Shown: piece after piece, positions 7,561-60,493 of the stretch
Numbering within the stretch: position 1 is the first letter of the stretch
Layout: every line of letters starts with the position of its first letter
Assembly (NCBI GenBank): GCA_023382265.1
Contig: JAMCPX010000015.1
Coordinates: 748-64,747, forward strand
Reading direction: 5' to 3'
DNA length: 64,000 nt
From: Deltaproteobacteria bacterium
Lineage (GTDB): Bacteria > JAMCPX01
Position numbers and translations under genes: made by a program
The notes under the pieces: generated by a model
Told to the model about the DNA's origin: nothing
Databases searched by the model: none
The model's input: the letters and a program-made list of their open reading frames with translations, nothing else

Positions 7561-7600
7561 TTATTCCACATCGTCCTATTAGTTGATTTTAGCAAGAATT

Positions 7601-8677
7601 TTAAAGGTATTCCTTAAGATTCTTCTCTCTCAGAATATTTACTATTTTTGATATGGTTTCATCACTGCCTTTTTTTGTAACAAGCACTACACCGGAAGAT
7701 GCTATAACAATAATATCTGATATGTTTGCGGTAACAACAAATCCATATTCGTTCATAACTATATTGTTAGAGCTTCCAATATCAATGCCGTTACCAATCC
7801 TTCTATTCCCCTTTTCATCCTGTTTAATGGCAATGCCTGCCAGCTGTTCAAAGCTTCCAAGATCTGCCCAGCCGGTATTCATTTCGATAACGTACACGTT
7901 ATCCAACTTTTCAATAATACCTTTATCTATTGATAAATCCTGAAGCTTTATATATTCCTCTTTAATCGTCTTTCGTTCATAAGGACCTTTCAGCTGCTTT
8001 TTTATCCTATTAAGGGCATCAGACAGCTCTGGCATATATTTTTTTATTGCCGCAAGCATTATGTCCGCCTTTGCAACAAATATGCCTGCATTCCATAGAT
8101 ACCCCTCTTTTATGAATTGTTCTGCAAGTTGCATATCCGGTTTCTCGGTAAACCTTCTGACCCTGTAAAGACCCGGAGTGTCTTTTAAAGAAGATGTTTC
8201 TCCTTTTTCTATATAACCATAATTAGTAGAAGGTGATGCCGGTTTTACACCAAAAATCACGACGCCGTTTATTTTTTCACACGCATCAATTGCCGCCTTT
8301 AAAAGAAGGGATAATTTATTATCATCTTCTATGTAATGATCTGCCGGCATTACAATCATAACAGGATTCTGTTCCCGTTCTGTAATATGAATTGCTGCAA
8401 GCCCGATTGCGGCAGCAGTATTCCTGCTGATCGGTTCTGTGATCACATTTACTACTGATAATTCTTTTACAGCATCATAAATGGGTGCAAAGACTTCTTC
8501 ATTGGTTACAACAAAAACATTTTTCCTTTCTGTAACATTCTCAAGTCTTTCCATGACTTGCCTTATGAGAGGTTTATCCCGCCCTATTGCAAGTGTAGGC
8601 TTTGGCTTTGAAATTCTTGATAGTGGCCACAACCTTTTACCCTGTCCGCCGGCAATGATAACACCATACACACTCAT
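7601..8677 (-). CDS. Mannose-1-phosphate guanylyltransferase (nucleotidyltransferase part of ManC)
   Basis: 358 aa. AGGQGKRLWPLSR signature at the N-terminus. Overlaps the upstream cupin gene by 4 nt. Confidence 0.85.
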   Translation of the reverse strand: MSVYGVIIAGGQGKRLWPLSRISKPKPTLAIGRDKPLIRQVMERLENVTERKNVFVVTNEEVFAPIYDAVKELSVVNVITEPISRNTAAAIGLAAIHITEREQNPVMIVMPADHYIEDDNKLSLLLKAAIDACEKINGVVIFGVKPASPSTNYGYIEKGETSSLKDTPGLYRVRRFTEKPDMQLAEQFIKEGYLWNAGIFVAKADIMLAAIKKYMPELSDALNRIKKQLKGPYERKTIKEEYIKLQDLSIDKGIIEKLDNVYVIEMNTGWADLGSFEQLAGIAIKQDEKGNRRIGNGIDIGSSNNIVMNEYGFVVTANISDIIVIASSGVVLVTKKGSDETISKIVNILREKNLKEYL

Positions 8678-9021
8678 TTTGTTCTCCCATAGTCATCCTC
8701 AAAACGAACTACATCATCCATATGCGATGTTGATACCTCATATATATACGCGTCTGTTATTGCATTTATCCTGTGTTTTGTTCCCGGCTTTATTCTTATA
8801 CTCTCGCCTTGTTTTAATTCTACTTTTTCGGTATCTTTAGAATCAGGCAACTCCATAACCACTTTTCCTTTTTCAAGAAACATCGTCTCATCTTTCTGCT
8901 TGTGCATTTGTAAACTTGAACGCGTCCCTGCCTTAAGAAATAGCAGCTTACCAATATAAAGCTCTGATTCAGCCCATACGAGTTCATAGCCCCACGGCTT
9001 ATTTATCCTTCGCGGCATCAT
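8674..9021 (-). CDS. Stand-alone cupin, type-II phosphomannose-isomerase-like (ManC C-terminal domain homologue)
   Basis: 115 aa. KPWGYE...SLQMH...H-containing cupin motifs and a C-terminal DDVVRFEDDYGR, as at the end of bifunctional ManC. Confidence 0.7.
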   Translation of the reverse strand: MMPRRINKPWGYELVWAESELYIGKLLFLKAGTRSSLQMHKQKDETMFLEKGKVVMELPDSKDTEKVELKQGESIRIKPGTKHRINAITDAYIYEVSTSHMDDVVRFEDDYGRTK

Positions 9022-10193
9022 ATAATATTCGATGCAGTATCGGCAATTATTTTATTACCTATTTCAATCTCCTTTACACTTTTTGTTATGATAGCGGTTG
9101 CAGTATCCGATTGAACATCAATAACCAGTAATTTACCCAGTACCTCTTTAGGAAGATGCAGCACTTTGCCCGTAGCAGGGTCTTTTACCGGTTTTCTATC
9201 TTTGTATATAACGAATGTGTTCCCAACCCGAACACCAGAATTACTCCCTCTATCAATATATACAATATTTCCCTCTCCATATATTTTACTGCGGGTCTTA
9301 CCGTAAGCTATGTAACCCTGAACCGGATCGGCCGCCAGTGTAATATTTATAGTTTTTGTGCCTTCCTCATAAGGAAGAAGTTTATCATGTACTCTGATAA
9401 CGTCAAAAGATTCTACGATATCACATTCAGATACATTTGCATTGTCCACTTTTGTAATTTTTAATATCCCGAGGATCTTTATCTTATAGCCAAGAGAATC
9501 ATCGGATGCCGGGTCATAAACTTTACCATCGGTTTTATAAATAAAGAATCTATCTCCTACATTGACCCCAGAACCGCTTCCGATATCTACAAATACCTTA
9601 TCATGCTGTCCGAATATATGTTTTTCGGAGTTTAAAGAAGCTACGATTTCTCCTGCCGATATCAGCTCGTGTGCTGTTATAAACCCGGCAGAGTCTATTG
9701 AAGGATACATGTAAGTATTTTCTTTGGTAGTTACAAATGCAGAGCTATAAGGGGTAGCAGTTTCTATTGAAGGCTGCTCCTCCTCTTGACCAGTAGCAGT
9801 CTGTACACCCTCGGTAAACGGTTGTACTGCACCAGGTGTAATAGCTTGTGCAGACATGGTAGTTGATGTCATACCCTGTGCAGTAATGGCCGTTAAGGGG
9901 ATTGCCGAAGCAGGTAAAAGTGATATTGATTCACCAGGATAGATGAGATGTGGATTCGTAATATATTTGTTTTGCTCCCATAACTTAGGCCAAATCCATG
10001 GATTATCATTAAATCTTAATGCTATGCTCCATAAGGTATCCCCACGCTTAACTATGTAAACATTTACATCTTTATCTGTATCAGTCATCCCATACACAGA
10101 TATAAAAACCATCATCAGAGCTGATACAAAAAACATTAAGGTTCTTTTGTTTATCTTCATAGCCCTCCTCGCTTTTTTGTTAACTATTATCAA
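9018..10193 (-). CDS. LysM-domain peptidoglycan-binding protein
   Basis: 391 aa. Signal/TM segment, then YIVKRGDTLWSIALRF...LIYPGESISL (LysM). Confidence 0.75.
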   Translation of the reverse strand: MIIVNKKARRAMKINKRTLMFFVSALMMVFISVYGMTDTDKDVNVYIVKRGDTLWSIALRFNDNPWIWPKLWEQNKYITNPHLIYPGESISLLPASAIPLTAITAQGMTSTTMSAQAITPGAVQPFTEGVQTATGQEEEQPSIETATPYSSAFVTTKENTYMYPSIDSAGFITAHELISAGEIVASLNSEKHIFGQHDKVFVDIGSGSGVNVGDRFFIYKTDGKVYDPASDDSLGYKIKILGILKITKVDNANVSECDIVESFDVIRVHDKLLPYEEGTKTINITLAADPVQGYIAYGKTRSKIYGEGNIVYIDRGSNSGVRVGNTFVIYKDRKPVKDPATGKVLHLPKEVLGKLLVIDVQSDTATAIITKSVKEIEIGNKIIADTASNII

Positions 10194-14729: not shown

Positions 14730-14821
14730 GCTTTTAGAAAAGCATTGTTAGCCTGTCAAGCTAAAAGCTATCTTTCTATACACGGTTTTATTTTTATAAA
14801 ATAATTGATGCAGTAAATCCA

Positions 14822-14922
14822 GTTAGAAAGGACGCGGCTTTAAACCGTGCCCTCTCTATGAGGAAATTATAAAATCATTATATCATCCCCGCCATTTATT
14901 GGTGTTTTTTAACGGGGTAAAA
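14822..14922 (+). repeat. 101-nt repeat element, copy A (identical 24-mer core GTTAGAAAGGACGCGGCTTTAAAC)
   Basis: Core 14822-14845 is 24/24 identical to the reverse complement of 41038-41061. The remainder is roughly 65-70% similar and ends in GGGGTAAAA. Lies 54 nt upstream of waaA, in the same orientation. Confidence 0.75.
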
Positions 14923-14976
14923 AAGTATTCATTCACTTGACAATAATGTGTTGTAATAAGAAGCTATTGTGCTGTA

Positions 14977-23797: not shown

Positions 23798-24937
23798 TTA
23801 AAACAAGCCTGATAAAAGGCTGACTGGCTCTTTGTTGAGAACGGATGATATAAACCCCTGAACAACAAGATTCTCCGCTTCATCGCGGGGTATACCGCGG
23901 CTTTTTATATAAAACATTGCATCTTCATCAACAGAACCTGAGCTTGCACTATGTGAGGCTTCTACCTCATCCTCATCTATCCAGAGGCTTGGAATGCCGT
24001 CAAAACGAGCCGTATTCCCGAGGGTGATGGCTTTTTCAGCCTGCTCTACCTTTGAGTTTTTTGCACCGGGCGCTACGTATGTTAATGCCCTGTAATTAAG
24101 TCTTGAATTATCCCTGATAGCTGCTCTAACATGCACCGAAGTTGACGTCCGGGGTGCTCTGTGGAATGTTTCATAAGATACATCTTTCTGAGCATCTCCG
24201 GAGCCTATTATAACGCTTAACATTCTGCTTTCGCCGTAGGGAGCATAAAGCATTGAACGGGTGCTTATAACAGTATTTACAGCCTCAAGATCAATATTGT
24301 ACCAGTTGATCCTGGCATGCTCTCCAACCACCGCCCTTTTTATTGCAGTATAAAAAGAATCGTGCCTTGATTTATTTAATGTAACATAATTAAGTGTTGA
24401 GCCTTTGCCTAAATAAACCTCTACATTATCAAATATCAAGGCTGTATTATCCGTTTTTATAATTCTAAGTAATGTCATGTTTGTTTCCGGCTCAATCATA
24501 ATAAGATCATGATGGACCATTAAACTATTATGTTGTGTAGATTTAACGAATTCCACAACAGGCTTGTCAGGGCTTGACTTTACATGCATTGAAAAACCAT
24601 TCAAATAAGACCTATCTATTTGAAGAAAAATATCATCCATGGAATGGAACTTTCCCCTGTTATCAGTATCCAATTTCATAAGTTTAAACAGATGATTACT
24701 TTGTTTTTCTGCATCTATTTTATCTAATAAAACATAAGGATTCAGATGTGAGCCGTTCCGTGTAATATAGCCGTCAATATTACCTATAACAGATTCGTGA
24801 TTTAGAGTTTTTGCAATATGATCTGCATAGTCTCGATATGCTTCTGCACTGCCATTGGATGCGGGATTCAAATCAGCAAGATTTATTAATTTTGTATCAA
24901 ATCTTTTCCATTGAGGTAAAACGATATTTATCGACAT
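23798..24937 (-). CDS. sufD: Fe-S cluster assembly protein SufD
   Basis: 379 aa. SufB/SufD beta-helix family. Last gene of the sufC-sufB-sufD order. Confidence 0.8.
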   Translation of the reverse strand: MSINIVLPQWKRFDTKLINLADLNPASNGSAEAYRDYADHIAKTLNHESVIGNIDGYITRNGSHLNPYVLLDKIDAEKQSNHLFKLMKLDTDNRGKFHSMDDIFLQIDRSYLNGFSMHVKSSPDKPVVEFVKSTQHNSLMVHHDLIMIEPETNMTLLRIIKTDNTALIFDNVEVYLGKGSTLNYVTLNKSRHDSFYTAIKRAVVGEHARINWYNIDLEAVNTVISTRSMLYAPYGESRMLSVIIGSGDAQKDVSYETFHRAPRTSTSVHVRAAIRDNSRLNYRALTYVAPGAKNSKVEQAEKAITLGNTARFDGIPSLWIDEDEVEASHSASSGSVDEDAMFYIKSRGIPRDEAENLVVQGFISSVLNKEPVSLLSGLF

Positions 24938-24938
24938 G

Positions 24939-26327
24939 TTACGCGCCTTTCATTTCGAGCTGGATCAGCCTGTTAAGTTCGACTGCATAACCCATTGGAA
25001 GCTCTTTTGCGATTGGTTCAATAAATCCTCTTACAATGAGGGCCACAGCATCATCTCTCGGTATGCCCCTGCTCATAAGATAAAACAACTGTTCTTCATC
25101 TATCTTGCCCACAGTTGCCTCATGTCCAACCGATGAATTAGGGTTTAATTGTTCTATAATGGGGACCGTATCAACAGATGATTTGTTATCAAGAAGTAAT
25201 GATTGACATTCTACGTGTGCCTTTGCACCGATTGCCTTTTTACCTATTCTCACAAGTCCTCTGTAAACAGATGTCCCGCCGTCTTTACATATACTCTTTG
25301 AAATAACGCTTGCACTCGTGTTTGGTGCTAAGAGTATTACCTTTGCGCCTGTATCCTTGTTTTGGCCATTGCCTGCAAATGCAACATTAAGATGCTCTGC
25401 CTTTGCACCCATACCGATGAGTATTGACGCAGGATAAAGCATTGTTACGCCGCTGCCCATTGAGCCTCCTATCCACTCCATTATACCATTCTCTTCAACA
25501 ATTGACCTTTTTGTATTGAGATTATAAACATCCGTACTCCAATTCTGTATGGTTGTATATCTTGCCCTTGCGTTTGCTTTTACAAAGATCTCAACAACCG
25601 CTGAGTGCAGAGAACTTACACTGTATCTCGGTGCAGTGCATCCTTCTATATAATGAACCTCTGCACCGGATTCCACAACAATAAGCGTATGCTCAAACTG
25701 TCCCGATGATTTTGTATTCATCCTGAAATATGTCTGCAAAGGTATTTCTACGTTTACGTTTTTGGGCACATACACAAAGCTACCGCCGCTCCATACGGCA
25801 CCATGAAGTGCTGCAAATTTGTTATCATTGGGAGGAACACATTGTGTCATAAAGTATTCTTTTACAAGGTCAGGATAATCCCTGACGGCAGAATCCATAT
25901 CGGTAAAAATAACACCCTTATCTTCCCATGCCTTTTTCAGGTTTGTATAAACAGCTTCTGACTCATACTGGGCTACGAGTCCTGCAAGATATTTTTTTTC
26001 AGCCTCCGGGATACCTAGTGCATCATAAGTCTTTTTTATCTGCTCCGGAACGTCATCCCATTTTAATGCCTTATAATCCTCGGGTCTTATGTAAAATATG
26101 ATTTCATCAAAATTAAGCTTTGATAAGTCGGGTCCCCACTTGGGCATAGGCTTTTCTTTAAAGATCCTGTATGATTCAAGCCGTTTTTCAAGCATCCATG
26201 CAGGCTCTCTTTTTTGTTTCGATATTTCCCTTATGATATCTTCATTTAAACCTTTTACAGTCTTAAATGCATAAGGAGATCCTGCAGGTTGTGTTGTGGT
26301 TTTGTCAACTTCCCGGACCTCTTCCAT
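24939..26327 (-). CDS. sufB: Fe-S cluster assembly scaffold SufB
   Basis: 462 aa. Conserved SufB C-terminal region (HEATVGKIDEEQLFYLMSRGI). Confidence 0.9.
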   Translation of the reverse strand: MEEVREVDKTTTQPAGSPYAFKTVKGLNEDIIREISKQKREPAWMLEKRLESYRIFKEKPMPKWGPDLSKLNFDEIIFYIRPEDYKALKWDDVPEQIKKTYDALGIPEAEKKYLAGLVAQYESEAVYTNLKKAWEDKGVIFTDMDSAVRDYPDLVKEYFMTQCVPPNDNKFAALHGAVWSGGSFVYVPKNVNVEIPLQTYFRMNTKSSGQFEHTLIVVESGAEVHYIEGCTAPRYSVSSLHSAVVEIFVKANARARYTTIQNWSTDVYNLNTKRSIVEENGIMEWIGGSMGSGVTMLYPASILIGMGAKAEHLNVAFAGNGQNKDTGAKVILLAPNTSASVISKSICKDGGTSVYRGLVRIGKKAIGAKAHVECQSLLLDNKSSVDTVPIIEQLNPNSSVGHEATVGKIDEEQLFYLMSRGIPRDDAVALIVRGFIEPIAKELPMGYAVELNRLIQLEMKGA

Positions 26328-27068
26328 TTATAACTCCTTTAACCATTCATAACCCGTTTGATCGAGTTGTTGCGCAAGCTCATATCCGCCGGACTTCGCA
26401 ATCTTACCATCCATCATTATATGCACAAACTGCGGCTTTATATAATCAAGTATGCGCTGATAATGTGTTATAAGTAAAAGGGTTAAGTTATTTTCTTTTA
26501 TGAGCTTGTTTATACCCTCAGATACAAATTTTAATGCATCTATATCAAGTCCAGAATCTATCTCGTCAAGCACAGCGAATCTTGGCAAAAGTACAGCCAT
26601 CTGAAGTATTTCATTGCGTTTTTTTTCACCACCGGAAAAACCTTCATTCAAATACCTGTCAAGAAATGATTGTGGAATATCCATTGCATTCAACCTTTTT
26701 AAAATCGTTTTATGAAAGGCAAGTATAGGGACATCCTTACCTTCTTTTGCAGTAACAGCTGTTCTTAAAAAATTTTCTACAGAAACCCCGGATACCTCTA
26801 TCGGATACTGAAAGCCTAAAAAGATACCAAGCCGTGCTCTATCATCCACAGGCATGTCAACAATGGATTTGCCTTCAAATAGGATATCGCCTGATGTAAT
26901 TTTGTATTTGGGATGACCCATAATGGTATAAGATAAAGTTGATTTACCAGAGCCGTTTGGGCCCATGATAACATGAGTTTCAGAAAGATTTATGCTAAGA
27001 TTAAGTCCTTTAATAATCTCCTTACCTTCTACCTCTACTTTTAACCCATTTATCTCAATTAATGACAT
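26328..27068 (-). CDS. sufC: Fe-S cluster assembly ATPase SufC
   Basis: 246 aa. Walker [10 protein letters not shown], signature FSGGEKKR, and Walker [12 protein letters not shown]. Confidence 0.92.
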
Positions 27069-32526: not shown

Positions 32527-33000
32527 ATTAAAACGCAAAAAGTAAATAAAATATATAAAACTCAGGATATAGAAAAACTTTATGCGATAGGTGAGGCTGC
32601 AAAGAAAACAGGACTTGCTGTCCCAACACTGCGTATGTATGAACATGAGGGTGTTATTATACCATACAGAACTCACACAGGCAGAAGATTTTATTCCCAT
32701 GCAGACATAGTAAGAATAAAATGTATAAGAGATCTTATAAAAAAGATAGGGCTGAATCTTGAAGGGATAAGGAGACTATTTTCACTATTACCTTGCTGGG
32801 AGGTAAAGGGTTGTTCAAGAAATGATCGACTTAATTGCCCTGCATATCAGGATAGCAGCAAGCCGTGCTGGATGTTTATAAAGGTTGTATGCAGAAAAGT
32901 AAGTACCGAGTGTAAAACGTGCTCAACCTATATGATGTCTACAAACTGTCATAACAGGATGAAGCTGATTCTCCGCGGCATTGGTTACGAGAAAGCATAA
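32527..33000 (+). CDS. MerR-family regulator with a C-terminal Cys-rich (two CW motifs) domain; start codon non-canonical and uncertain
   Basis: The HTH YAIGEAAKKTGLAVPTLRMYEHEG lies upstream of the first in-frame ATG (32635). The open frame 32491-32634 has no ATG/GTG/TTG. ATT at 32527 follows GAGGAG by about 10 nt. Confidence 0.7.
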   Translation: MKTQKVNKIYKTQDIEKLYAIGEAAKKTGLAVPTLRMYEHEGVIIPYRTHTGRRFYSHADIVRIKCIRDLIKKIGLNLEGIRRLFSLLPCWEVKGCSRNDRLNCPAYQDSSKPCWMFIKVVCRKVSTECKTCSTYMMSTNCHNRMKLILRGIGYEKA

Positions 33001-35748: not shown

Positions 35749-37101
35749 CTAACTCTTTTGCAGTTCATATTCCTTAATTTTCTTATAGAGCGTTGTCCTA
35801 TCTATTCCGAGGATATCTGCCGATTTACTTATGTTCCAGCCATTATCCATTAAAACCTTGTAGATATGCTTTTTTTCGACATTCGTAAGAGACATGTCCT
35901 GAGATTTTTCCAACTTATCGGGTTCAAGCCTTATGCAATTCCCAATCTCTTTTTTCGTGATGATGTTGTCCCTGGCAAGCACAACAGACCTTTCTATAAC
36001 GTTTTTTAATTCCCTTATATTGCCGGGCCAGTGATACTGCATAAGTATTGCCATGGCCTCTTCATCTACCCGTTCTACTCTTTTGTTTGTTTCTATATTG
36101 AATTTCTCTATCATGTGTTGAACAAGTAAAGGTATATCTTCGGGTCTTTCTTTAAGAGGCGGCAATTCAATTGTTATGACGTTCAGCCTGTAGTAAAGAT
36201 CCTCTCTGAATTTGTTTTCTTCTATTGCCTTTATCAAATCTTTGTTTGTTGCACTGATAATCCTTACATCGGTTTTTACAGGTATGGTTCCACCAAGCCG
36301 TGTGAATTCTTTTGTTTCAATAACCCTTAATAAATCCATTTGAAGCTTTAAACTTATGTCCCCTATTTCATCGAGAAACAAAGTCCCTCCGTCAGAGAGT
36401 TCAAACCTGCCTTTTACGGTACTTGTAGCCCCTGTGAAGGCGCCTCTTTCATGTCCGAACAATTCATTCTCTAATAGCGTCTCGGTAAGTGACGCACACG
36501 ATACAGTTATGAATGGTCCGTCTTTCCTCAGGCTTTCTGCATGAATTGCCCTTGCAATAAGTTCTTTGCCTGTCCCGCTTTCACCGTGAATCAGTACGGT
36601 AATATTCGTTTTTGCAACGGTTTTTACAAGCTCAAATATATCATGCATCCGTTTATTTTTACTTATGAGTTCCTGAAACTGGAATTGTTTTGCAAGCTCT
36701 TTTTTGAGATATATGTTTTCCTGTTCAAGCTCCTGCTGTTTCATGATCTTCTTGATAGTCATGGAAATCTCTTCGGGCTCGAAGGGCTTCATCAGGTAAT
36801 CATAAGCCCCGTCTTTTATGGCTTTTACCGCTGTTTCAACAGTTGCGTAAGCCGTCATTATTATTATAGGTATCTCGGGCAGGATTTTTTTTACCTCCGC
36901 CAAGAATTGTAAACCGTCCATCTCCGGCATTTTTAAATCTACGAGTAAAAGACTCCACCCCTTTTTGGTTATTTCTTCAAGAGCCCGTTTACCGCTTTCA
37001 ACAGCAAGTACCTCATATCCATCCTCTTCCAGCCATATAGAAAGAGAATCTCTTACGCTTTCTTCGTCATCCACTATCATTATACACGGTTTACGATTCA
37101 T
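35749..37101 (-). CDS. Sigma-54-dependent response regulator (NtrC/AtoC family)
   Basis: 450 aa. Receiver domain ([13 protein letters not shown]), AAA+ domain with GESGTGKE and the GAFTGA loop, and a C-terminal Fis-type HTH. Confidence 0.92.
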
Positions 37102-37648
37102 TCTGCATCTCCAATTCCGATAATTTTTTATTCAGTTGAAACTGATGGTTGGCACAGAATTTATCCGTTTTTTGATCAACGTCTGCTACCTTGTTTGACA
37201 GGTGCATAACGCAGTGCTCAAGTTCGCAATGTGTGAATCCAAAGGTATGCCCCAATTCATGAAGTGTTTCTTTTGTCAGTCTTTCAATTAACAGGTTCCT
37301 ATCATATTTTAAGCCGTAAAATTCCTGTCTTAGTCTTGCTGTTGAAACTATTGCGGCTCTACCATCTAACTGAGCTTCGCCAAAAACATAGGTAAGGATT
37401 GGTATAAACAGATCAACATCTGTAATACCTACGGTTCTGAATGCCGATGAATTGTGATTTGTGACGATATACTTTAATATCTTTGTAGAATGATACTGCA
37501 TTCTCATAGGATCAAATGCATAGGTTGGTCCTTCTATATGTGGAAGGATCTTTAACCGTATGTTTAATATTTTTTCCACCATCTCTGCTGTTACCTCTAC
37601 TATACTTTTATCAAGATCTCCTATTGGCTGGACATAAATGTAACCCAT
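37091..37648 (-). CDS. amzA: Archaemetzincin-like zinc metalloprotease (peptidase M54)
   Basis: 185 aa. HELGHTFGFTHCELEHCVM...C motif. Overlaps the regulator gene by 11 nt. Confidence 0.8.
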   Translation of the reverse strand: MGYIYVQPIGDLDKSIVEVTAEMVEKILNIRLKILPHIEGPTYAFDPMRMQYHSTKILKYIVTNHNSSAFRTVGITDVDLFIPILTYVFGEAQLDGRAAIVSTARLRQEFYGLKYDRNLLIERLTKETLHELGHTFGFTHCELEHCVMHLSNKVADVDQKTDKFCANHQFQLNKKLSELEMQNES

Positions 37649-37660
37649 TTAACCATTATA

Positions 37661-39256
37661 TCATATAGCCTTTTTAATGGGTAGGGTGATCTTTACCGTT
37701 GTTCCTTCTCCGATTTTACTCTCTATATCTACATTACCTTCGTGTTTTGAAATGATTCCATAAACAACTGCCAATCCCAGACCGGTACCTTTTTCTTTTG
37801 TCGAGAAGAATGGTTCAAATATCTTTTTTAGGTTTTCTTCCGAAATCCCTATGCCGCTATCCTTAATAGTTATAAAGATGTTTTTATCGTTATTATCCGT
37901 TTCAATATATAACTCTTTTTTGTTGTCTTTCATTGCTTCGCAGCCGTTGATCAATACATTCATAAATGCCTGCTTGAGTTGATCTGGATCAGCCATTGTT
38001 AGAGGCATCGCTGAAAAAGATTTATTTATAGTTATAGCCTGAATGGTAATCATATTATTGATAAGCGCGATCGTTTCATCAAGTAATAAATTAACATCAA
38101 CAAGCCTGTAATGCGGCTCCCTCTGCCTTGAGAAATCAAGCAGGTTTTTTACAATACTTGATGTTCTCTGCGTTTCTTTTTCCATAACAGAGAGATAGTT
38201 TATGGATTTTTCAAAATCTTCCGGAGATAAATTCCCCTGTTTAAACTTTTTAAGCAGAACCTTAATATAGGTAAGAACACCTGTTAACGGGTTATTTATC
38301 TCATGTGCCACTGTTGCAGCGAGCTTTCCAAGCGAGGCAAGCTTTTCGGCCCTTACAATCTGCTCCTGAGCCTTTTTTAATTCATTAGTTCTTTCGTTTA
38401 CCTTAATCTCAAGCGTTTGAACAAGATTAATTGTTTCTTCTTTTGCCTCTTTTAATTTTAACATCATGTCATTAAATGCGTTGGCAAGCGTGCCAAGTTC
38501 ATCGTATGATTGGATGATAATGGGATGGGTAAGATCACCTTCTGTTATTCTTTTTGTGCCTTCTACAAGATTTTTTACAGGCGTATCTATAAATTTTTCT
38601 ATGAAAAGTGATATAATGATTGATATAATGAATACCGATAAAACCCCTGAAATAATTATTCTTATCTCCATATCATGGATTTCCTGTTCAATAGATGAAA
38701 GTGACATGGTAATATCAAAAACACCGAGTACCTTTTTGTGTGCAGGATGAGCGTGGCATGAGGCAGAAGAACATTCGGGTTCATTGTATATAGGTGTTAT
38801 CATGCCGAGTACCTTATGACCATCAAGACTAAAAACGCGCGTTCTCTTAGGTGTATTAAGTTTCTCAAGCGGTTTTCCAATAGCATGGCATGCGTAGCAG
38901 GCTTCTGCACTCTTATTGACCATGACTCCGGTTTCCCTTTTATCAGTGGAATACATGATTCTGCCTTCTTTGTTGAAAAACCTTACTCTTTCTATACCTT
39001 TTTGCATACCAATGTCTTCAATAATTCTGTAAACATTCTGTCTCTGGTTCTGCAGCATGTCATACTTAGTGCTTTTTACTACTGTATTGCTGAACTGGGT
39101 GGCACCTCTGATCACTTCATCTAATAATTGTTTTTTTTGATCTCTAATATTTAGATATACTACTGTACTGAAAACCGCTATAACGATAAGGCTTATGTAT
39201 AATATCAATTTGAACCCTATATTCCTGTATTTCACATACCACCTTATCCTCTTCAA
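37661..39256 (-). CDS. Sensor histidine kinase with a periplasmic domain carrying CXXCH and CX4CH motifs
   Basis: 531 aa. Two TM helices flank about 160 aa containing CYACH and CSSASCH. Also HAMP, H-box VAHEINNPL, DSGIGI and GTGLGL. Confidence 0.9.
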   Translation of the reverse strand: MKRIRWYVKYRNIGFKLILYISLIVIAVFSTVVYLNIRDQKKQLLDEVIRGATQFSNTVVKSTKYDMLQNQRQNVYRIIEDIGMQKGIERVRFFNKEGRIMYSTDKRETGVMVNKSAEACYACHAIGKPLEKLNTPKRTRVFSLDGHKVLGMITPIYNEPECSSASCHAHPAHKKVLGVFDITMSLSSIEQEIHDMEIRIIISGVLSVFIISIIISLFIEKFIDTPVKNLVEGTKRITEGDLTHPIIIQSYDELGTLANAFNDMMLKLKEAKEETINLVQTLEIKVNERTNELKKAQEQIVRAEKLASLGKLAATVAHEINNPLTGVLTYIKVLLKKFKQGNLSPEDFEKSINYLSVMEKETQRTSSIVKNLLDFSRQREPHYRLVDVNLLLDETIALINNMITIQAITINKSFSAMPLTMADPDQLKQAFMNVLINGCEAMKDNKKELYIETDNNDKNIFITIKDSGIGISEENLKKIFEPFFSTKEKGTGLGLAVVYGIISKHEGNVDIESKIGEGTTVKITLPIKKAI

Positions 39257-39290
39257 TATTATTATAGCAATATCATAATAAATGCTATAG

Positions 39291-39743
39291 TTAATGCATT
39301 ATCTGCATCCAGAATGTCTTAAAATCAAAACCATTAAAAGTGGGGCTCTTTTTATTATGACAGTTTACACACGTGTCAGCAGCATTACGGTTTAAGCCGG
39401 CATTCCATACTTCATTAAAGTTCTTCATTGTATCCATATCCGAATAATCGCTGCCGGGTCCGTGGCATGCTTCGCATTGCACGCCGGGTAAGGACTTTCT
39501 ATCATCTGTTGTATGACACCTAATACAATCAGGGTTATCTTTTTGTTTTGCATTCAGTGCATCATAAGCCGCTGCGTGAGCAGTTTTTTTCCATATTTTG
39601 TATTGTTTTTCATGACAACCGGCACACGAGTCAACGCCAACGTAGGTGTGTTTTTTGATTGACATGGTGCTGTTTTCGGCAAATGCCGTGCCATTTAAGC
39701 CAATACAAATCATCATTACTATAAATAACGATACAGTTTTCAT
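39291..39743 (-). CDS. Periplasmic tetrahaem c-type cytochrome (cytochrome c554-like family)
   Basis: 150 aa. Signal peptide (GTAFA). Haem motifs: CAGCH, CIRCH, CEACH, CVNCH. Confidence 0.85.
   Translation of the reverse strand: MKTVSLFIVMMICIGLNGTAFAENSTMSIKKHTYVGVDSCAGCHEKQYKIWKKTAHAAAYDALNAKQKDNPDCIRCHTTDDRKSLPGVQCEACHGPGSDYSDMDTMKNFNEVWNAGLNRNAADTCVNCHNKKSPTFNGFDFKTFWMQIMH
39678..39693 (-). promoter_or_regulatory. Near-consensus sigma-54 -24/-12 element inside the cytochrome signal-peptide coding region
   Basis: The minus strand reads TGGCACGGCATTTGCC, against the consensus TGGCACG-N4-TTGCW. Confidence 0.35.
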
Positions 39744-39784
39744 AATTATCTCCTTGTACTTTTCATAAATGTAAAAAAGCTTAA

Positions 39785-40933
39785 TCAGCCTCTGACGATC
39801 TCCTCTTCTTCCGCTTCTTCGGTGTGTTTTTCATCAACAAATACCGGGAAGTGTTTTGCCGTAAATGCGAATGCAAGGAATCCTATTGTGACAAGGAAAA
39901 CCGAGATCACAATTTCACCAAATGCGGGGAAATAAGTACCGAGTGCAGGATTTTCTATCCCTGTTATTGCAACATCGAGCCTGTTCATTACAAAGCCCAC
40001 GATAACAAGCAGCGATGCGATGAATAATCCCTTTGTATTTGTTCTAACTGCAGGTATCAGTAACAGGATCACTGGGACGATGATCTGAATCATGGTTTCT
40101 AAATCAAACATTATACTCTTGAAATTTGTGGATAAAACGGCGGATATCGCCCCGCGATTAACGAGATCCAATATTTTCAGGAGAAGGTAAAAAACCATTA
40201 TAAGCACATTCACTCTTGCAAGTCCGTTTAAAAGATCAAGCTCAAGACCCTTTCCAAGAAACCGCCTGCTTAAAAAGGCTTCAAAAGTAATCATGGCAAG
40301 CCCGACAGATACAGCAGATATAAAAAAGAATACAGGCAGTAATGGCGAGTACCATAGTTTGTATAATTTTTCAGGCACAATCAAAAATAGTGAACCAAGT
40401 GAAGATTGATGCAGTGTTGACAGTATCACGCCAAGTATGGCTATTGGTATTATAAATGAATGTATAAGTTTTTCCAGACGATGAAAACCCAATCCCTCAA
40501 ATACAACCGTACTGAACTCAAGAGTAAGCACGCTGAGATAAAGCATGACGCACCATGCAACTTCAAACATCACAGAGTGGTGGTTCCAGAATACAAGCGG
40601 ATGCCATATATCAAACCATTTTCCCAGATCATAAATCAACCCTACGGCTACCAATGAATAGCCAAGAAAGCCTGTGAGTATTGCCGGCATCAGTATGGGT
40701 TTATAATTATCAATTCTGAATATATAAACTGTAAGGGCTATTAAAAAACCGCCGGCAGCCAGACCAACACCTGTAACGACATCAAATCCAACCCACAAAC
40801 CCCATGGGGAGTTATCGCTGAGGTTTGTTACTGCTCCAAGTCCCTTTGTAAATCTGATAATGGTGTAGTATACTCCGAGTAACAATATTACTGCTATCAC
40901 AATTCTCCAAAATGTTATCTTTGGCAATTTCAT
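39785..40933 (-). CDS. NrfD/PsrC/HybB-like polytopic quinone-interacting membrane subunit
   Basis: 382 aa, about 10 predicted TM helices. Context with an NrfC-like ferredoxin. N-terminal pattern as in the NrfD family. Confidence 0.75.
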   Translation of the reverse strand: MKLPKITFWRIVIAVILLLGVYYTIIRFTKGLGAVTNLSDNSPWGLWVGFDVVTGVGLAAGGFLIALTVYIFRIDNYKPILMPAILTGFLGYSLVAVGLIYDLGKWFDIWHPLVFWNHHSVMFEVAWCVMLYLSVLTLEFSTVVFEGLGFHRLEKLIHSFIIPIAILGVILSTLHQSSLGSLFLIVPEKLYKLWYSPLLPVFFFISAVSVGLAMITFEAFLSRRFLGKGLELDLLNGLARVNVLIMVFYLLLKILDLVNRGAISAVLSTNFKSIMFDLETMIQIIVPVILLLIPAVRTNTKGLFIASLLVIVGFVMNRLDVAITGIENPALGTYFPAFGEIVISVFLVTIGFLAFAFTAKHFPVFVDEKHTEEAEEEEIVRG

Positions 40934-40960
40934 AAATACCTCTCAATCCTTTATTTAACA

Positions 40961-41061
40961 TTTTACCCTGTTATAAAGCCCCACCATTTATGGCTGGGAT
41001 AATATGATCAATTTTAAGTCCTTATAGAAAAGGTGTAGTTTAAAGCCGCGTCCTTTCTAAC
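40961..41061 (-). repeat. 101-nt repeat element, copy B (inside the operon, between the 76-aa gene and the NrfD-like gene)
   Basis: Reverse complement of 41038-41061 = GTTAGAAAGGACGCGGCTTTAAAC, 24/24 with 14822-14845. Same orientation as the downstream gene. The TAG stop of the 76-aa ORF lies within the core. Confidence 0.75.
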
Positions 41062-41287
41062 GGGTTTTTTTCTGTTCTGATTCTTTGACCTTTTCTCTCC
41101 TGTTTATTATCCACCATAAGCCGGCAAACATGGCTCCGCCTGTCAAAACCTTCGGTGTTAAAAAGCTGCGTTTTGTAAATCTGTTCGCCAGCACATTTAA
41201 TTGTTCTTGCTTGATATCAACAGGGGCCTGTTTGGAAGCCGTATTTTGGTTTAATAGTTTTAATAAAAGTGTACTCATTGTATTCAT
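41057..41287 (-). CDS. Small single-pass membrane protein, paralogous to the C-terminal anchor of the adjacent ferredoxin
   Basis: 76 aa. KVLTGGAMFAGLWWIINRREKVKESE versus the ferredoxin tail VVLVGGVVLTGIWWITSRRDEVKKFE (13/26 identical). 4-nt overlap with the upstream gene. Confidence 0.5.
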   Translation of the reverse strand: MNTMSTLLLKLLNQNTASKQAPVDIKQEQLNVLANRFTKRSFLTPKVLTGGAMFAGLWWIINRREKVKESEQKKTR

Positions 41288-42066
41288 TGTTTTTCTCCTT
41301 TGCCGGGAAGTTTCTTTTTTTCTTTGTGTGTCAATTCAAACTTTTTAACCTCATCTCTTCTGCTTGTAATCCACCATATACCTGTCAGTACCACTCCGCC
41401 AACAAGTACAACGGTAGGAACTTTATCGAGGGCTGCCCATGTATACATCGGCATGGGCTTGTCTGGGAAGGCAACATTGAAGGGATAGCCGAGCTTTTCA
41501 AATGGGACATTTGAGATATACAAAACGGATGTGCCTCCAACCTCTTCGAGTCCAAAAATATGGTTTACATATTTATCAGGTTCTGCAGTAATTCTTTTTT
41601 TTGCCTCTTTTATCAAATCATCTCTATCTCCGAAAATGCTCGCACCCGTCGGGCAGGCTGCGGTACATGCCGGTTCAGAGCCTTCTTCAATCCTGTCATA
41701 GCACATATAACACTTCTCAATATGAGGAACGACCTTATCCCATTGGTACCTTGGGACATGAAAAGGACATGAAAACATACAATACCTGCAGCCAATGCAT
41801 TTATCCTTGTCATATATAACAGGCCCGGATGATGTTTTCGTAAGAGCGCCGACAGGACATACCGAAACGCATGTCGGCTCTTCACAATGCATACACATCC
41901 TTCTCACATAGGTGTTGGGTAGTCTTTCCTGAACAACAGTATACGCTTCGTATGAGAGCTCTTTGTCTAAAGAAAGGGGCAGGTCATTGCGAAGTTTACA
42001 GGCTTCTTCACATGCCCCGCACCCTATACACTTTGTGATATCAACCAGTATACCCTTTTTACTCAT
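41284..42066 (-). CDS. NrfC/HybA/DmsB-type 4x[4Fe-4S] ferredoxin subunit with a C-terminal TM anchor and no Tat leader
   Basis: 260 aa. CIGCGACEEAC, CMHCEEPTCVSVCP, CIGCRYCMFSCP and CYMC..CTAACP. Starts MSKKGILVD (no RRxF). Confidence 0.88.
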   Translation of the reverse strand: MSKKGILVDITKCIGCGACEEACKLRNDLPLSLDKELSYEAYTVVQERLPNTYVRRMCMHCEEPTCVSVCPVGALTKTSSGPVIYDKDKCIGCRYCMFSCPFHVPRYQWDKVVPHIEKCYMCYDRIEEGSEPACTAACPTGASIFGDRDDLIKEAKKRITAEPDKYVNHIFGLEEVGGTSVLYISNVPFEKLGYPFNVAFPDKPMPMYTWAALDKVPTVVLVGGVVLTGIWWITSRRDEVKKFELTHKEKKKLPGKGEKQ

Positions 42067-42085
42067 ATTTCCCTTCCCTTCTTAT

Positions 42086-42748
42086 CTAATGAGCAAGAAA
42101 CTCCTTCTCAAACTTCTCTATTGCCTTCTCGCCCATCCTGCTCAGCATACCTTCTGTTAGGCATCCGCCGTCCTGGCTTGTTTCACCGATACCATACTGT
42201 AATGCACTCTCGCCAAGTGCAAACTTACGGAATCTGGCTACTTCCAACTTAAACCACGCAACAGCATCCTCTGCAATTTTTAATACTTTAAGGTTTGTAG
42301 AGAGGTTTGTCGGCTTTACCTCTAATATCCATCCTACCCTGTAAGGCTCTGTAAGAATCTGTGCAGGATTGGTAAGCAAATATTCGTTGATAGCCGTAAC
42401 TTCTCCATCAACAGGTGCGGTAAATGACAGTTCTCTTTCACCCTGTTTTACTGTAAATACCTTTTCACCTTGTTTTATCTTTGTCCCAGCTGCAGGTATT
42501 TCAACTTTCTCAATTTCACCAAGAATCTTTCTCGTAAAGTCGTCAATGCCCACACGGACTTCGCCTGTCGACATTATCCTTGCCCATGTATGACCGGGGT
42601 AGAAAAACGTGCTCATTGGCACACGGAAGTCTGCTATCCCAAGCCTTGCGGGTGCTGCTGTCTTTAGCTGTTTCTTTTCAAACGCCTGGACCAGAAGGTC
42701 AAGCATCACGAAACCTATTATTGTTATTGCTACCATTAAAGCAACCAT
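42086..42748 (-). CDS. Membrane-anchored GcvH-fold (glycine-cleavage H-like) protein lacking the lipoyl lysine
   Basis: 220 aa. N-terminal TM helix. HTWARI..VGIDDF...APVDGEV...EPYRVGWILEV aligns gap-free with E. coli GcvH; the lipoyl-Lys position is Glu. Confidence 0.7.
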   Translation of the reverse strand: MVALMVAITIIGFVMLDLLVQAFEKKQLKTAAPARLGIADFRVPMSTFFYPGHTWARIMSTGEVRVGIDDFTRKILGEIEKVEIPAAGTKIKQGEKVFTVKQGERELSFTAPVDGEVTAINEYLLTNPAQILTEPYRVGWILEVKPTNLSTNLKVLKIAEDAVAWFKLEVARFRKFALGESALQYGIGETSQDGGCLTEGMLSRMGEKAIEKFEKEFLAH

Positions 42749-42772
42749 GTTATTCTCCTTTTTTTTAATTTT

Positions 42773-43507
42773 TTACTTGTTAAGCAAAAACACCTTAACA
42801 AGCGTACGCCATTCTTCTTCGCTCTCAACAGTGCTTAAAAACCTGTTAATCTCACCGCCATCGGTCATAGTTATTCCGATTTCCGTACCGATTACACTGC
42901 GTAACCTTTCCGACTCTATAGCCGTCCATTTTGCCGTCATATCTGCATGCATTAACCATCTCATATCATCATTATCTGTCCTTGATGTTATGAGCCAGCC
43001 TTCTGAATAAGGGTCATTACTTATACAACTCACATCTCTTTTTATGCCATTATTTGTTGTAACAATTTCTCCGTTTACCGGGCTAATAATGTCTGCACTT
43101 TTATTCCCGCACCATACCTTTGCAAACGGCTCTCCCATCCTGATAATTTGCCCCGTGTCCGGTAAATCAATATGATTAATTCCATTTAACAGCTTAGATG
43201 CAAAATCATCTATTCCTATTTTAACTATATTTTTATCTTCTAACTTTACCCATGTATGTGCTTGATGGTAATAGTAATTTTTTCTAATTATGAATCCTTT
43301 CACTATTTCAATCTCAGGATTAAACCTTTTAAGATCGCTCGTTTTATTTGCCGCTTCTGAATATACTGCGCATCTTTCATACTCGCCTGCCAGGCATAAA
43401 CTATCGGTTTTGATCTGATCCACCGGTATCATCTTCTTAAATGGTATTGCAGTGCAATACTCTACCAGTATCTTTTTTATGAAAGGGCATTGTCTTTTGT
43501 TTTCCAT
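42773..43507 (-). CDS. GcvH-fold protein with an N-terminal 4-Cys segment, lacking the canonical lipoyl lysine
   Basis: 244 aa from the ATG at 43507 (GAAGGTG SD 6 nt upstream). The listed GTG at 43516 has no spacing to the SD. CPF..YC..C..C N-terminus; HTWVKL..IGIDDF..SPVNGEIV..DPYSEGWLI. Confidence 0.7.
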   Translation of the reverse strand: MENKRQCPFIKKILVEYCTAIPFKKMIPVDQIKTDSLCLAGEYERCAVYSEAANKTSDLKRFNPEIEIVKGFIIRKNYYYHQAHTWVKLEDKNIVKIGIDDFASKLLNGINHIDLPDTGQIIRMGEPFAKVWCGNKSADIISPVNGEIVTTNNGIKRDVSCISNDPYSEGWLITSRTDNDDMRWLMHADMTAKWTAIESERLRSVIGTEIGITMTDGGEINRFLSTVESEEEWRTLVKVFLLNK

Positions 43508-43544
43508 TTTAATCACCTTCTTTCTATTTGCTATCTATGTATAA

Positions 43545-43560
43545 TGCATACATTGTGCCA
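43545..43560 (-). promoter_or_regulatory. Sigma-54 promoter (-24/-12) of the GcvH-like/NrfCD-like operon
   Basis: The minus strand reads TGGCACAATGTATGCA, with GG and GC at the consensus spacing. About 40 nt upstream of the ATG at 43507. An NtrC-type activator is encoded in the same operon. Confidence 0.65.
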
Positions 43561-43615: not shown

Positions 43616-43695
43616 AGATTGTAGAGAATAATGACCTCTATAACACGATATAAGTGTTGAGATTGTCCACGCTGTGTGGAATTTCTCTACAATCT
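43616..43695. promoter_or_regulatory. Candidate enhancer (UAS) region: 13-bp inverted repeat pair and a TCCAC-N5-GTGGA palindrome
   Basis: AGATTGTAGAGAA (43616-43628) and its exact complement TTCTCTACAATCT (43683-43695). TCCACgctgtGTGGA at 43666-43680. Lies 56-135 nt upstream of the -24 element. Confidence 0.4.
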
Positions 43696-60420: not shown

Positions 60421-60493
60421 GGTCCTATAGTCTAGAGGCCCAGGACGTTGCCCTCTCAAGGCGAAAACGAGAGTTCGAATCTCTCTAGGACCA
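60421..60493 (+). tRNA. tRNA-Glu (anticodon CUC)
   Basis: Manual cloverleaf. Acceptor GGTCCTA/TAGGACC. D-arm GTCTAGAGGCCCAGGAC, identical to the canonical tRNA-Glu D-arm. Anticodon stem TTGCC/GGCGA with loop CT-CTC-AA. T-arm GAGAG-TTCGAAT-CTCTC. Discriminator A; CCA not encoded. Confidence 0.93.

Follow-up and report, generated by a model that had tools for sequence, protein, structure and literature searches.

What does an iron-sulfur/NrfD membrane module do when the genes around it encode two proteins of the GcvH fold, a tetrahaem cytochrome and a set of regulators, and no catalytic subunit? The question is raised by a locus in a 64,000-nucleotide stretch (hereafter the window) of contig JAMCPX010000015.1 from a Deltaproteobacteria bacterium. 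Nine open reading frames (ORFs), all co-directional on the minus strand, run from 43507 down to 35749. They encode, in order, two GcvH-like proteins (GcvH1 and GcvH2), a four-cluster ferredoxin (FeS), a 76-aa transmembrane (TM) protein, an NrfD-family membrane subunit (NrfD), a tetrahaem cytochrome c, a sensor histidine kinase, an archaemetzincin (M54 peptidase) and an NtrC-type activator. We read the locus, with a probability of about 45%, as a self-regulated respiratory accessory module, predicted to consist of a sigma-54-controlled, menaquinone-reactive FeS/NrfD unit and its cytochrome, with the GcvH-like proteins as accessory or regulatory subunits.

A preceding interpretation made from the DNA letters alone (the sequence-only reading) had described the same nine co-directional genes, and their coordinates, spacing and overlaps agreed with ours; the gaps in transcription order from GcvH1 are 24, 19, -4, 123, 41, 34, 12 and -11 nt. 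Pfam and NCBIfam profile searches with curated equivalog cut-offs confirmed its family assignments. That reading had treated the missing catalytic subunit as the anomaly of the locus. This view could not be upheld, as FeS/NrfD modules with a multihaem cytochrome as their only partner already form a recognised, mostly predicted class, which includes Geobacter Cbc4, Nhc, Hmc and complexes of MBNT15 and Melioribacter (PMC13591261, PMC9386147, PMC8076601).

Conservation of the cassette

We scanned 185,579 species-representative genomes, one per species, with the TM-anchored GcvH-like protein as query and a profile built from a four-sequence GcvH alignment (an eight-sequence version was too diverse). 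The scan gave 335 relatives of this protein, and 79 loci were kept; locus counts were made by tblastn, ORF calling on high-GC loci being crude. FeS and NrfD were both found in 67 of the 79 loci. FeS, NrfD, kinase, NtrC and M54 were all present in 43, and many of the other loci were truncated contigs. The spread covers at least 15 phyla or candidate phyla, among them Bacteroidota, Acidobacteriota, Methylomirabilota, Thermodesulfobacteriota, KSB1 and Schekmanbacteria.

Bacteroidota cassettes have the order long TM-GcvH, FeS, NrfD, TM-GcvH, kinase, NtrC, M54, and the Thermodesulfobacteriota/Syntrophorhabdus order is the same with the addition of the Cys-rich GcvH1. Acidobacteriota, Abyssobacteria and the window's clade carry GcvH1, GcvH2, FeS and NrfD plus cytochromes. 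Where GcvH1 homologues are 45-47% identical to the window protein, the same six-gene core was found (GcvH1, GcvH2, FeS, small TM protein, NrfD, tetrahaem cytochrome); in one such locus (L003) the kinase, M54 and NtrC genes are kept but rearranged to a divergent position. More distant GcvH1 relatives (27-31% identity) likewise adjoin Fer4_11 and NrfD genes.

We also looked at the cassette from the NrfD side, using a sample of five loci with 53-56% identity to the window NrfD. The kinase-NtrC-archaemetzincin trio was present in four of the five and GcvH-like genes in three, with none in the remaining two. A Schekmanbacteria locus (L089) encodes two GcvH-like proteins and the trio, and L091 one GcvH-like protein and the trio. 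The KSB1 locus (L092) has FeS and NrfD and, farther along, the haem kinase followed by a fusion of a TM helix, a receiver (REC) domain and a GCV_H domain; NtrC and M54 are absent from it. Two minimal cassettes, from Terriglobia (L095) and L096, contain FeS, NrfD, kinase, NtrC and M54, with no GcvH-like sequence within 9 kb. Because of these GcvH-free cassettes, the tightest core is FeS, NrfD, haem kinase, NtrC and M54, and the GcvH-like proteins are frequent accessories of it. The association of GcvH-fold with NrfCD-like genes, on which the sequence-only reading depended, thus holds in most loci and across many phyla, but it is not obligatory.

All unlabelled neighbouring ORFs of about 85 loci were clustered, and no molybdopterin or [NiFe] subunit was found to be conserved within 10 kb. 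The only clusters that did recur were those of antisense shadow ORFs, of tatC (four loci) and, in the window's clade, of an MqnA/D-like gene. The absence of a known catalytic subunit, seen before at the locus, is therefore a property of the related loci as well. A full-text literature search found no paper describing the cassette, in agreement with the earlier statement that the combination matches no described complex; coverage of the search was incomplete, so "undescribed" is provisional.

Some neighbours of the cassette are recorded here in their own right. A VitK2_biosynth gene (futalosine-pathway MqnA/D-like) follows the cytochrome gene in L003, L010, L011, L014-L017 and L028, and is not found in the window. 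The tatC gene adjoins the regulator genes, beside NtrC, in L003, L011, L012 and L068. Genes for 2-oxoacid:ferredoxin oxidoreductases flank the cassette in three unrelated lineages (L091, L092 and L078, the last at 8055-9928). Tandem GcvH-like genes on contigs without FeS, NrfD or regulators occur in Ignavibacteriales/Bacteroidetes metagenome-assembled genomes (MAGs; L020, L023, L026, L038) and in Syntrophorhabdus (L069), where their neighbours are transporters or housekeeping genes.

The FeS/NrfD unit and its redox partners

The NrfD gene (39785..40933, minus strand) encodes a HybB/HmcC-type membrane subunit of 382 aa with about 10 TM helices, which matched PF03916 with an E-value of 7e-22. 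Its scores with the HmcC model (327.3 bits, cut-off 550) and the HybB model (285.8 bits, cut-off 450) were both below threshold, and it is 28% identical to E. coli HybB. We took the HybB residues of the quinone site and the proton half-channels from the literature (PMC8076601) and aligned E. coli HybB with 61 cassette NrfDs. Y99, E148, H184, E291 and R329 were conserved in all 61 proteins, D109 and E155 in 60 and K198 in 58. Substitution of Arg89, Tyr99, Glu148 or His184 in E. coli HybB reduces hydrogen oxidation (PMC8076601). The window NrfD looks like a functional subunit, predicted to be haem-free and quinone-reactive.

Topology of NrfD was assigned by a manual count of Lys and Arg residues, which placed 15 basic residues in predicted cytoplasmic segments and 6 outside. 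By this count NrfD is N-in, as HybB has been modelled, and therefore the docking face for FeS should be periplasmic; the cytochrome of the window and the NrfD-cytochrome fusions of related lineages are in accord with this. Relatives of NrfD number in the thousands, under the annotations HybB-like, NrfD/PsrC or Ni/Fe-hydrogenase cytochrome b. In many of them a c7-type cytochrome is attached at the C-terminus by way of an extra TM helix, and NrfDs with the extra helix and a c7-type or longer multihaem domain are also found in the clade with leaderless FeS proteins described below (L034 9818-11413, L024 9357-11594, P0139, P0152, P0153 and others). Because a c7-type cytochrome is joined to the NrfD C-terminus in other lineages, we place the separate cytochrome of the window at the complex. 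This cytochrome (39291..39743, minus strand) is a tetrahaem c-type protein of 150 aa with a signal peptide and four CXXCH motifs. It belongs to the Cytochrome_C554/c7 family (cytochrome c554, E 3e-5), and an orthologue follows NrfD in L001, L003, L010, L011, L014-L017 and L028.

FeS (41284..42066, minus strand) is a HybA/HmcB-like ferredoxin with a Fer4_11 match, four complete Cys motifs for [4Fe-4S] clusters and a C-terminal TM anchor followed by a twin Arg. It scored 255.8 bits with HmcB (cut-off 420) and 207.5 bits with HybA (cut-off 263), below threshold in both cases, and its closest solved relative is FdnH (1kqf_B). A four-cluster ferredoxin thus stands beside an NrfD-family polytopic protein, as in an NrfC/NrfD-type (CISM-like) module. 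Because the ORF begins 12 residues before the first Cys cluster and a stop codon upstream blocks any extension, FeS has no twin-arginine translocation (Tat) leader, as the sequence-only reading had noticed. Among its orthologues, 40 carry an N-terminal Tat-type leader, and none of these has the W[WL]x(1-3)RR motif after the C-terminal anchor. Another 20, including the window's, are leaderless and start directly at the first Cys cluster; 17-19 of them have an invariant twin Arg right behind the anchor. Probably these groups correspond to two clades, so that the split may go back to a single evolutionary event.

The missing leader could mean that the locus supplies a membrane anchor and quinone-coupling module to a Tat-signal-bearing enzyme encoded elsewhere, such as a hydrogenase, a formate dehydrogenase or a molybdoenzyme, with FeS hitch-hiking on it during export. 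Hitch-hiking of this kind is known for FdnH on FdnG, DmsB on DmsA and QrcC on QrcB. In keeping with this, all 20 leaderless orthologues begin at the first Cys cluster, the closest solved relative FdnH is itself co-exported with FdnG, the minimal cassettes L095 and L096 contain no carrier for FeS, and tatC lies beside the cassette in four loci. However, the roughly 85 loci show no conserved subunit of this sort within 10 kb, the 40 orthologues with their own Tat leader still have no catalytic neighbour, and the cytochrome-NrfD fusions indicate cytochromes as partners. We consider an external catalytic partner unlikely. The earlier claim that no catalytic partner is encoded here stands for the locus, beside which none is conserved; the leaderless FeS leaves room for a Tat-signal partner encoded elsewhere.

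The gene that follows FeS encodes a single-span membrane protein of 76 aa (41057..41287, minus strand). It is 42.5% identical to FeS residues 220-259 and, judged by this similarity, is a paralogue of the FeS C-terminal anchor. It also matched the FeS C-termini of L089, L092, L095 and L096, and the gene is confined to close relatives. Between it and NrfD lies a spacer of 123 nt (40934..41056, minus strand) with one copy of a ~105-nt dispersed repeat, which the sequence-only reading had also reported. The repeat occurs in two intergenic copies, 40950-41056(-) and 14815-14925(+), which are ~80% identical with a 19-nt exact core, and the second copy ruled out a chance match. The spacer folded no better than shuffled sequence (z-score 0.87) and had no Rfam match, and a terminator scan of it gave nothing convincing. 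The sole Rfam match within the 64-kb window was a tRNA gene at 60421-60493(+). Elsewhere in the window, three ORFs of 246, 462 and 379 aa (23798-27068, minus strand) may be a SufC/SufB/SufD-like Fe-S assembly cluster, judged from ORF size and order alone, and 32635-33000(+) encodes a MerR-family regulator with a Cys-rich C-terminal tail (CWEVKGC...CPAY...PCW), whose relative in L006 is annotated MerR.

GcvH-like proteins and the regulatory genes

GcvH1 (42773..43507, minus strand) is a soluble GcvH-fold protein of 244 aa with a 4-Cys N-terminal region and a C-terminal helical extension containing a DGG motif. GcvH2 (42086..42748, minus strand; 220 aa) has an N-terminal TM anchor and the same C-terminal extension. 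No further GcvH-like sequence was found in the window. The two proteins matched Pfam GCV_H with E-values of 2e-23 and 6e-21, but with 77.1 and 62.6 bits they did not reach the cut-off of the GcvH equivalog (TIGR00527 / PF01597; 115.85), and they were also under the 'not_gcvH' and 'GcvH_rel_desulf' cut-offs. In an AlphaFold2 model of GcvH1 the core (pLDDT ~90) superimposed on the H-proteins 1onl, 1htp and 3ab9 with TM-scores of 0.89-0.93; 5a35 (GcvH-L of Streptococcus pyogenes) is a further structural match. The Cys-rich N-terminal region, with a pLDDT of ~30, was uninformative on structure. A full-library search with GcvH2 gave 97 clusters (50% identity) at E <= 1e-30 and 1819 at E <= 1e-10, the latter including true GcvH. 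Public annotations call these proteins glycine cleavage system H, or hypothetical.

At the lipoyl-lysine column (the tip of the ESVKAAS hairpin in E. coli) GcvH1 has Asn and GcvH2 has Glu, and Lys is present in only 13 of 132 family members. The next position (+1) is Lys in 93 and Arg in 22 of the 132, so that 87% have one or the other and 17% have Arg; the largest GcvH1 subfamily has neither. Genuine, lipoylated GcvH was ruled out, because the lipoyl lysine is absent and the equivalog scores were missed. No Pfam match of the gcvT/gcvP type, whether aminomethyltransferase or glycine dehydrogenase, was found in the called genes flanking a close relative's cassette (corresponding to about 33-50 kb of the window, whose remaining ORFs are unannotated). 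Two family-wide features are foreign to GcvH: the N-terminus is either a TM helix with an embedded acidic residue or a 4-Cys motif, and the C-terminal extension of ~60 residues, outside the Pfam coverage, runs from an amphipathic helix through an invariant DGG to a terminal helix.

The TM helix of the GcvH-like proteins is followed by basic residues, and in Bacteroidota the long form consists of a lipoprotein signal, a PBP_like_2 domain, a TM helix, RRRR and GCV_H. On both grounds the GcvH domain is predicted to be cytoplasmic. The sequence-only reading had left the GcvH-fold proteins as the only unassigned partners of the module. Because they lack the lipoyl lysine and would lie in the cytoplasm, whereas FeS and the cytochrome should be periplasmic, a direct role in electron transfer is unlikely. 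Receiver domains between the TM helix and the GcvH domain were found in at least three separate 50%-identity clusters; in the KSB1 MAG such a TM-REC-GCV_H fusion (L092 19094-20245) lies directly after the orthologous haem-motif kinase, and further examples are P0312 and P0317. The membrane tether, the predicted cytoplasmic location and the receiver-domain fusions fit an accessory or regulatory role.

A metagenomic protein of 1391 aa (P0251) combines three Lys-less GcvH-like domains with FAD_binding_4/FAD-oxidase_C, 2x[4Fe-4S] and two CCG domains. In L078 an HdrD-like CCG protein (6418-7623) adjoins GcvH1.

One explanation would keep the GcvH-like proteins in the electron path. Here FeS would be cytoplasmic, and a GcvH-like dithiol or swinging arm, based on an unusual modification or on Cys, would pass electrons to FeS and on to menaquinone, with the cytochrome re-oxidising the quinol outside; ferredoxin from 2-oxoacid:ferredoxin oxidoreductases is a possible electron source. 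The leaderless window FeS, the Lys or Arg next to the lipoyl column in 87% of the family, Cys residues near the hairpin in GcvH1, the oxidoreductase genes flanking L078, L091 and L092, and the two associations with CCG proteins just described are consistent with such a system. Against it, 17% of the family have Arg in place of Lys, the largest GcvH1 subfamily has neither residue, and the GcvH-like domains of P0251 lack Lys as well. A periplasmic FeS is favoured by the N-in NrfD and by the basic tail that follows the FeS anchor, the orthologues with Tat leaders are certainly exported, and no lipoate ligase or synthase is encoded in the cassette. We hold a cytoplasmic dithiol system to be quite improbable.

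The kinase (37661..39256, minus strand) has a haem-motif periplasmic domain followed by HAMP-HisKA-HATPase. Its sensor domain matched PF21563, the haem-c MCP sensor family (E 9e-7), and the top matches among solved structures, which were weak, are 3b42 and 3b47, haem-c PAS sensor domains from Geobacter. The haem motifs of the window kinase are CYACH and CSSASCHAH, and CxxCH and CxxxxCHxH are both kept in 46 of 51 cassette kinases. The archaemetzincin (37091..37648, minus strand) overlaps the NtrC gene by 11 nt. It passed the curated subfamily cut-off of 145 with 171.7 bits and matched AmzA structures with E 1e-24. Its HExxHxxGxxHCx4CxM motif is complete, as it is in 39 of the 41 cassette copies; in the window's clade a CxxH takes the place of the last CxxC. 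M54 tracks NtrC, the genes being adjacent and usually overlapping, and where NtrC is missing M54 is missing too. For the archaemetzincin family no physiological role is known (PMC3427221), and no paper found by the literature search describes a fixed pairing of M54 with an NtrC-type activator gene. We considered cleavage by M54 after the DGG motif, exposing a Gly-Gly end, and dropped it, as M54 persists in GcvH-free cassettes and tracks NtrC.

The NtrC-type activator (35749..37101, minus strand) has REC, sigma-54 AAA+ (Sigma54_activat) and HTH_8 domains. A sigma-54 -24/-12 promoter-like element, TGGCACAATGTATGCA (43545..43560, minus strand; TGGCAC-N5-ATGCA), ends 37 nt before the GcvH1 ATG (43507) and was the top intergenic match in the window. 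With at least 9 of 11 positions matched and within 300 nt upstream of the first GcvH gene, the element was found in 11 of 47 loci, compared with 18 of 940 control windows (L006, L011, L012, L016, L028, L021, L024, L034 and L035 being loci of this kind). It is present in every locus of the window's clade with a placeable gene start, and L089 from Schekmanbacteria has a perfect site. Upstream of the promoter lies a 13-nt perfect inverted repeat, with its proximal arm at 43616..43628 and its distal arm at 43683-43695, both on the minus strand. The distal arm falls in a candidate enhancer, or upstream activating sequence (UAS), for the NtrC-type activator (43674..43695, minus strand), which contains TGTAGAGAAATTCCACAC; the candidate upstream element reads TGTAGAGAA...CACAC. 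The window shares with L003, L011, L012, L016 and L028 a motif TGTAGA(G)AAnTTnnCnACAC, which lies ~150-190 nt upstream of GcvH1. The orthologous loci that share the sigma-54 site and the UAS-like motif have 45-60% protein identity. The sigma-54 control suggested before was thus strengthened, and at sequence level an NtrC-family system with its promoter is present in all parts: REC, AAA+, HTH_8, a HisKA kinase and the -24/-12 element.

The same regulatory genes allow a different assignment of roles, in which FeS/NrfD and the GcvH-like proteins would be a co-sensor of the redox state or the quinone pool that reports to the kinase and NtrC, with the targets elsewhere and no bulk enzyme at the locus. 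The seven-gene co-directional array of Bacteroidota, without an upstream sigma-54 site, is a typical layout for an accessory sensor. The long GcvH-like protein of this phylum is built like a sensor, with a periplasmic PBP_like_2 domain, a TM helix and a cytoplasmic domain, and the REC-GcvH fusions put the GcvH-like domain inside a phosphorelay. In the window's clade, however, the conserved sigma-54 promoter stands before the structural genes, which makes these the output. The kinase also has a haem sensor domain of its own, and the proton-channel and quinone residues are kept as in working enzymes. We give the co-sensor only a small chance.

In the respiratory accessory module that we favour, the kinase would sense the periplasmic redox state or a small ligand through its c-type haem, as the motifs suggest. 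It would phosphorylate the NtrC-type activator, which, judging from the conserved DNA elements, would bind the upstream element and open the sigma-54 promoter before GcvH1. The transcript would give rise to a complex on the haem-free, HybB-like NrfD, with a menaquinone site and proton half-channels and probably proton-conducting, and the four-cluster HybA/HmcB-like ferredoxin would be anchored on the periplasmic face of NrfD. In the window's lineage the ferredoxin would exchange electrons with the soluble tetrahaem cytochrome c and through it be connected with further redox proteins of the periplasm. Overall, the module would act as a menaquinol:cytochrome c oxidoreductase, or in reverse, like the predicted Cbc4, Nhc and Hmc membrane modules. 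The GcvH-like proteins would be accessory or regulatory on the cytoplasmic face and link the module to the phosphorelay, and the archaemetzincin would act together with NtrC on some substrate. The sequence features and the co-conservation of the genes are shown by the analysis; within this scheme, the direction of electron flow, the formation of a complex and the roles of the GcvH-like proteins and M54 are what we infer.

Several observations weigh against this interpretation. Where E. coli HybB has Arg89, 59 of 61 cassette NrfDs likewise have Arg, but the window protein has Met (Met82, motif PILMPAIL). We infer a periplasmic FeS from topology rules and from the orthologues, but the window's clade has neither a leader nor a Tat partner, and the minimal leaderless cassettes (L095, L096) encode no Tat-signal partner; the leaderless FeS may hitch-hike on a partner encoded elsewhere, may use an unrecognised export signal or may be located in the cytoplasm. 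A homologue of the tetrahaem cytochrome was found in only 8 of the 79 loci and in none of the Bacteroidota cassettes. The cytochrome that had been counted as part of the module is present in the window's clade, but most cassettes do without it; it is optional, and the redox partner may differ between lineages. No recognisable sigma-54 site was found upstream of the structural genes in Bacteroidota cassettes. The conserved +1 Lys/Arg of the GcvH-like proteins may carry an unusual modification, and the regulatory role proposed for these proteins derives from domain fusions and predicted topology only.

On a bolder reading, the cassette would be a novel type of respiratory unit under phosphorelay control. 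The non-lipoylated, membrane-tethered GcvH-like proteins would then be cytoplasmic gating or regulatory subunits of a proton-conducting NrfD/FeS module, phosphorylated through a receiver domain in some lineages, the archaemetzincin would work with the sigma-54 activator, and FeS would be exported through its C-terminal anchor and twin Arg by an unrecognised route. We regard this reading as doubtful.

Significance and comparison with known systems

In most anaerobic respirations it is FeS/NrfD modules that couple the quinone pool with redox reactions in the periplasm, and the cassette adds a widespread variant. Metabolic reconstructions from metagenomes would be misled by the current labels "glycine cleavage system H", "Ni/Fe-hydrogenase cytochrome b" and "polysulfide reductase". 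Three poorly understood families also gain a shared context, namely bacterial archaemetzincins (in every examined locus paired with an NtrC-type activator), non-lipoylated membrane-anchored H-protein homologues and HybA-like ferredoxins that have no export signal. A role of the GcvH-like proteins as regulated subunits of a proton-conducting quinone module would, if borne out, be a new post-translational control of respiration.

For Cbc4 (CbcSTU) of Geobacter sulfurreducens, the activity of a quinol:cytochrome c oxidoreductase has been predicted, and the complex is proposed to connect periplasmic cytochromes with the menaquinone pool (PMC13591261). Compared by composition, it is like the window locus in uniting a tetrahaem cytochrome c with an iron-sulfur protein and a membrane subunit free of haem, while a catalytic subunit is missing (PMC13591261). 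Complexes noted in MBNT15 and Melioribacter are similar in composition too (PMC9386147). In contrast to the window, no GcvH-like genes, archaemetzincin or dedicated haem kinase/NtrC pair have been described for Cbc4, and CbcS is described as anchored in the inner membrane, whereas the window cytochrome looks soluble.

Hmc (HmcABCDEF) and Nhc (NhcABCD) of Desulfovibrio likewise combine an FeS/NrfD-type module with multihaem cytochromes. HmcB and HmcC were the best NCBIfam matches, and a distant cassette (L008) encodes an HmcD-like small protein (PF28260). The window, however, has no 16-haem or 9-haem cytochrome. HmcA (16 haems), HmcE (cytochrome b) and HmcF (a CCG protein) are all missing from the window array, and none of them is conserved in related loci; without HmcE and HmcF there is therefore no electron route to the cytoplasm as in Hmc. 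Conversely, the GcvH-like proteins, the kinase/NtrC pair and M54 are features of the window and not part of Hmc or Nhc. HybA/HybB of E. coli hydrogenase-2 are subunits of the same types, and the window FeS has a HybA-type C-terminal anchor, but HybA has its own Tat leader, which the window FeS lacks, and neither the array nor the related loci contain hydrogenase genes such as hybO or hybC. We ruled out that the locus belongs to Hmc or Hyb, on the scores below cut-off together with the absent partner genes; the FeS/NrfD sequences lie between HmcBC and HybAB, below every curated cut-off.

For the added parts, LbpA of sHdr sulfur oxidation and GcvH-L of S. pyogenes are precedents for an H-protein fold recruited outside glycine cleavage. 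Both retain the lipoyl lysine and are lipoylated. The window proteins differ from them in having no lipoyl lysine, in their membrane anchor or 4-Cys N-terminus and in the helical DGG extension. The M54 protein resembles the archaemetzincins AmzA and AMZ1/2, with the full HExxHxxGxxHCx4CxM motif and a score that passes the subfamily cut-off. Among the complexes listed in a review of NrfD-like subunits, none has GcvH-like, archaemetzincin or dedicated kinase/NtrC components (PMC8076601). Set beside these systems, the locus is a variant of the NrfCD-type quinone module with an unusually rich and conserved set of added parts.

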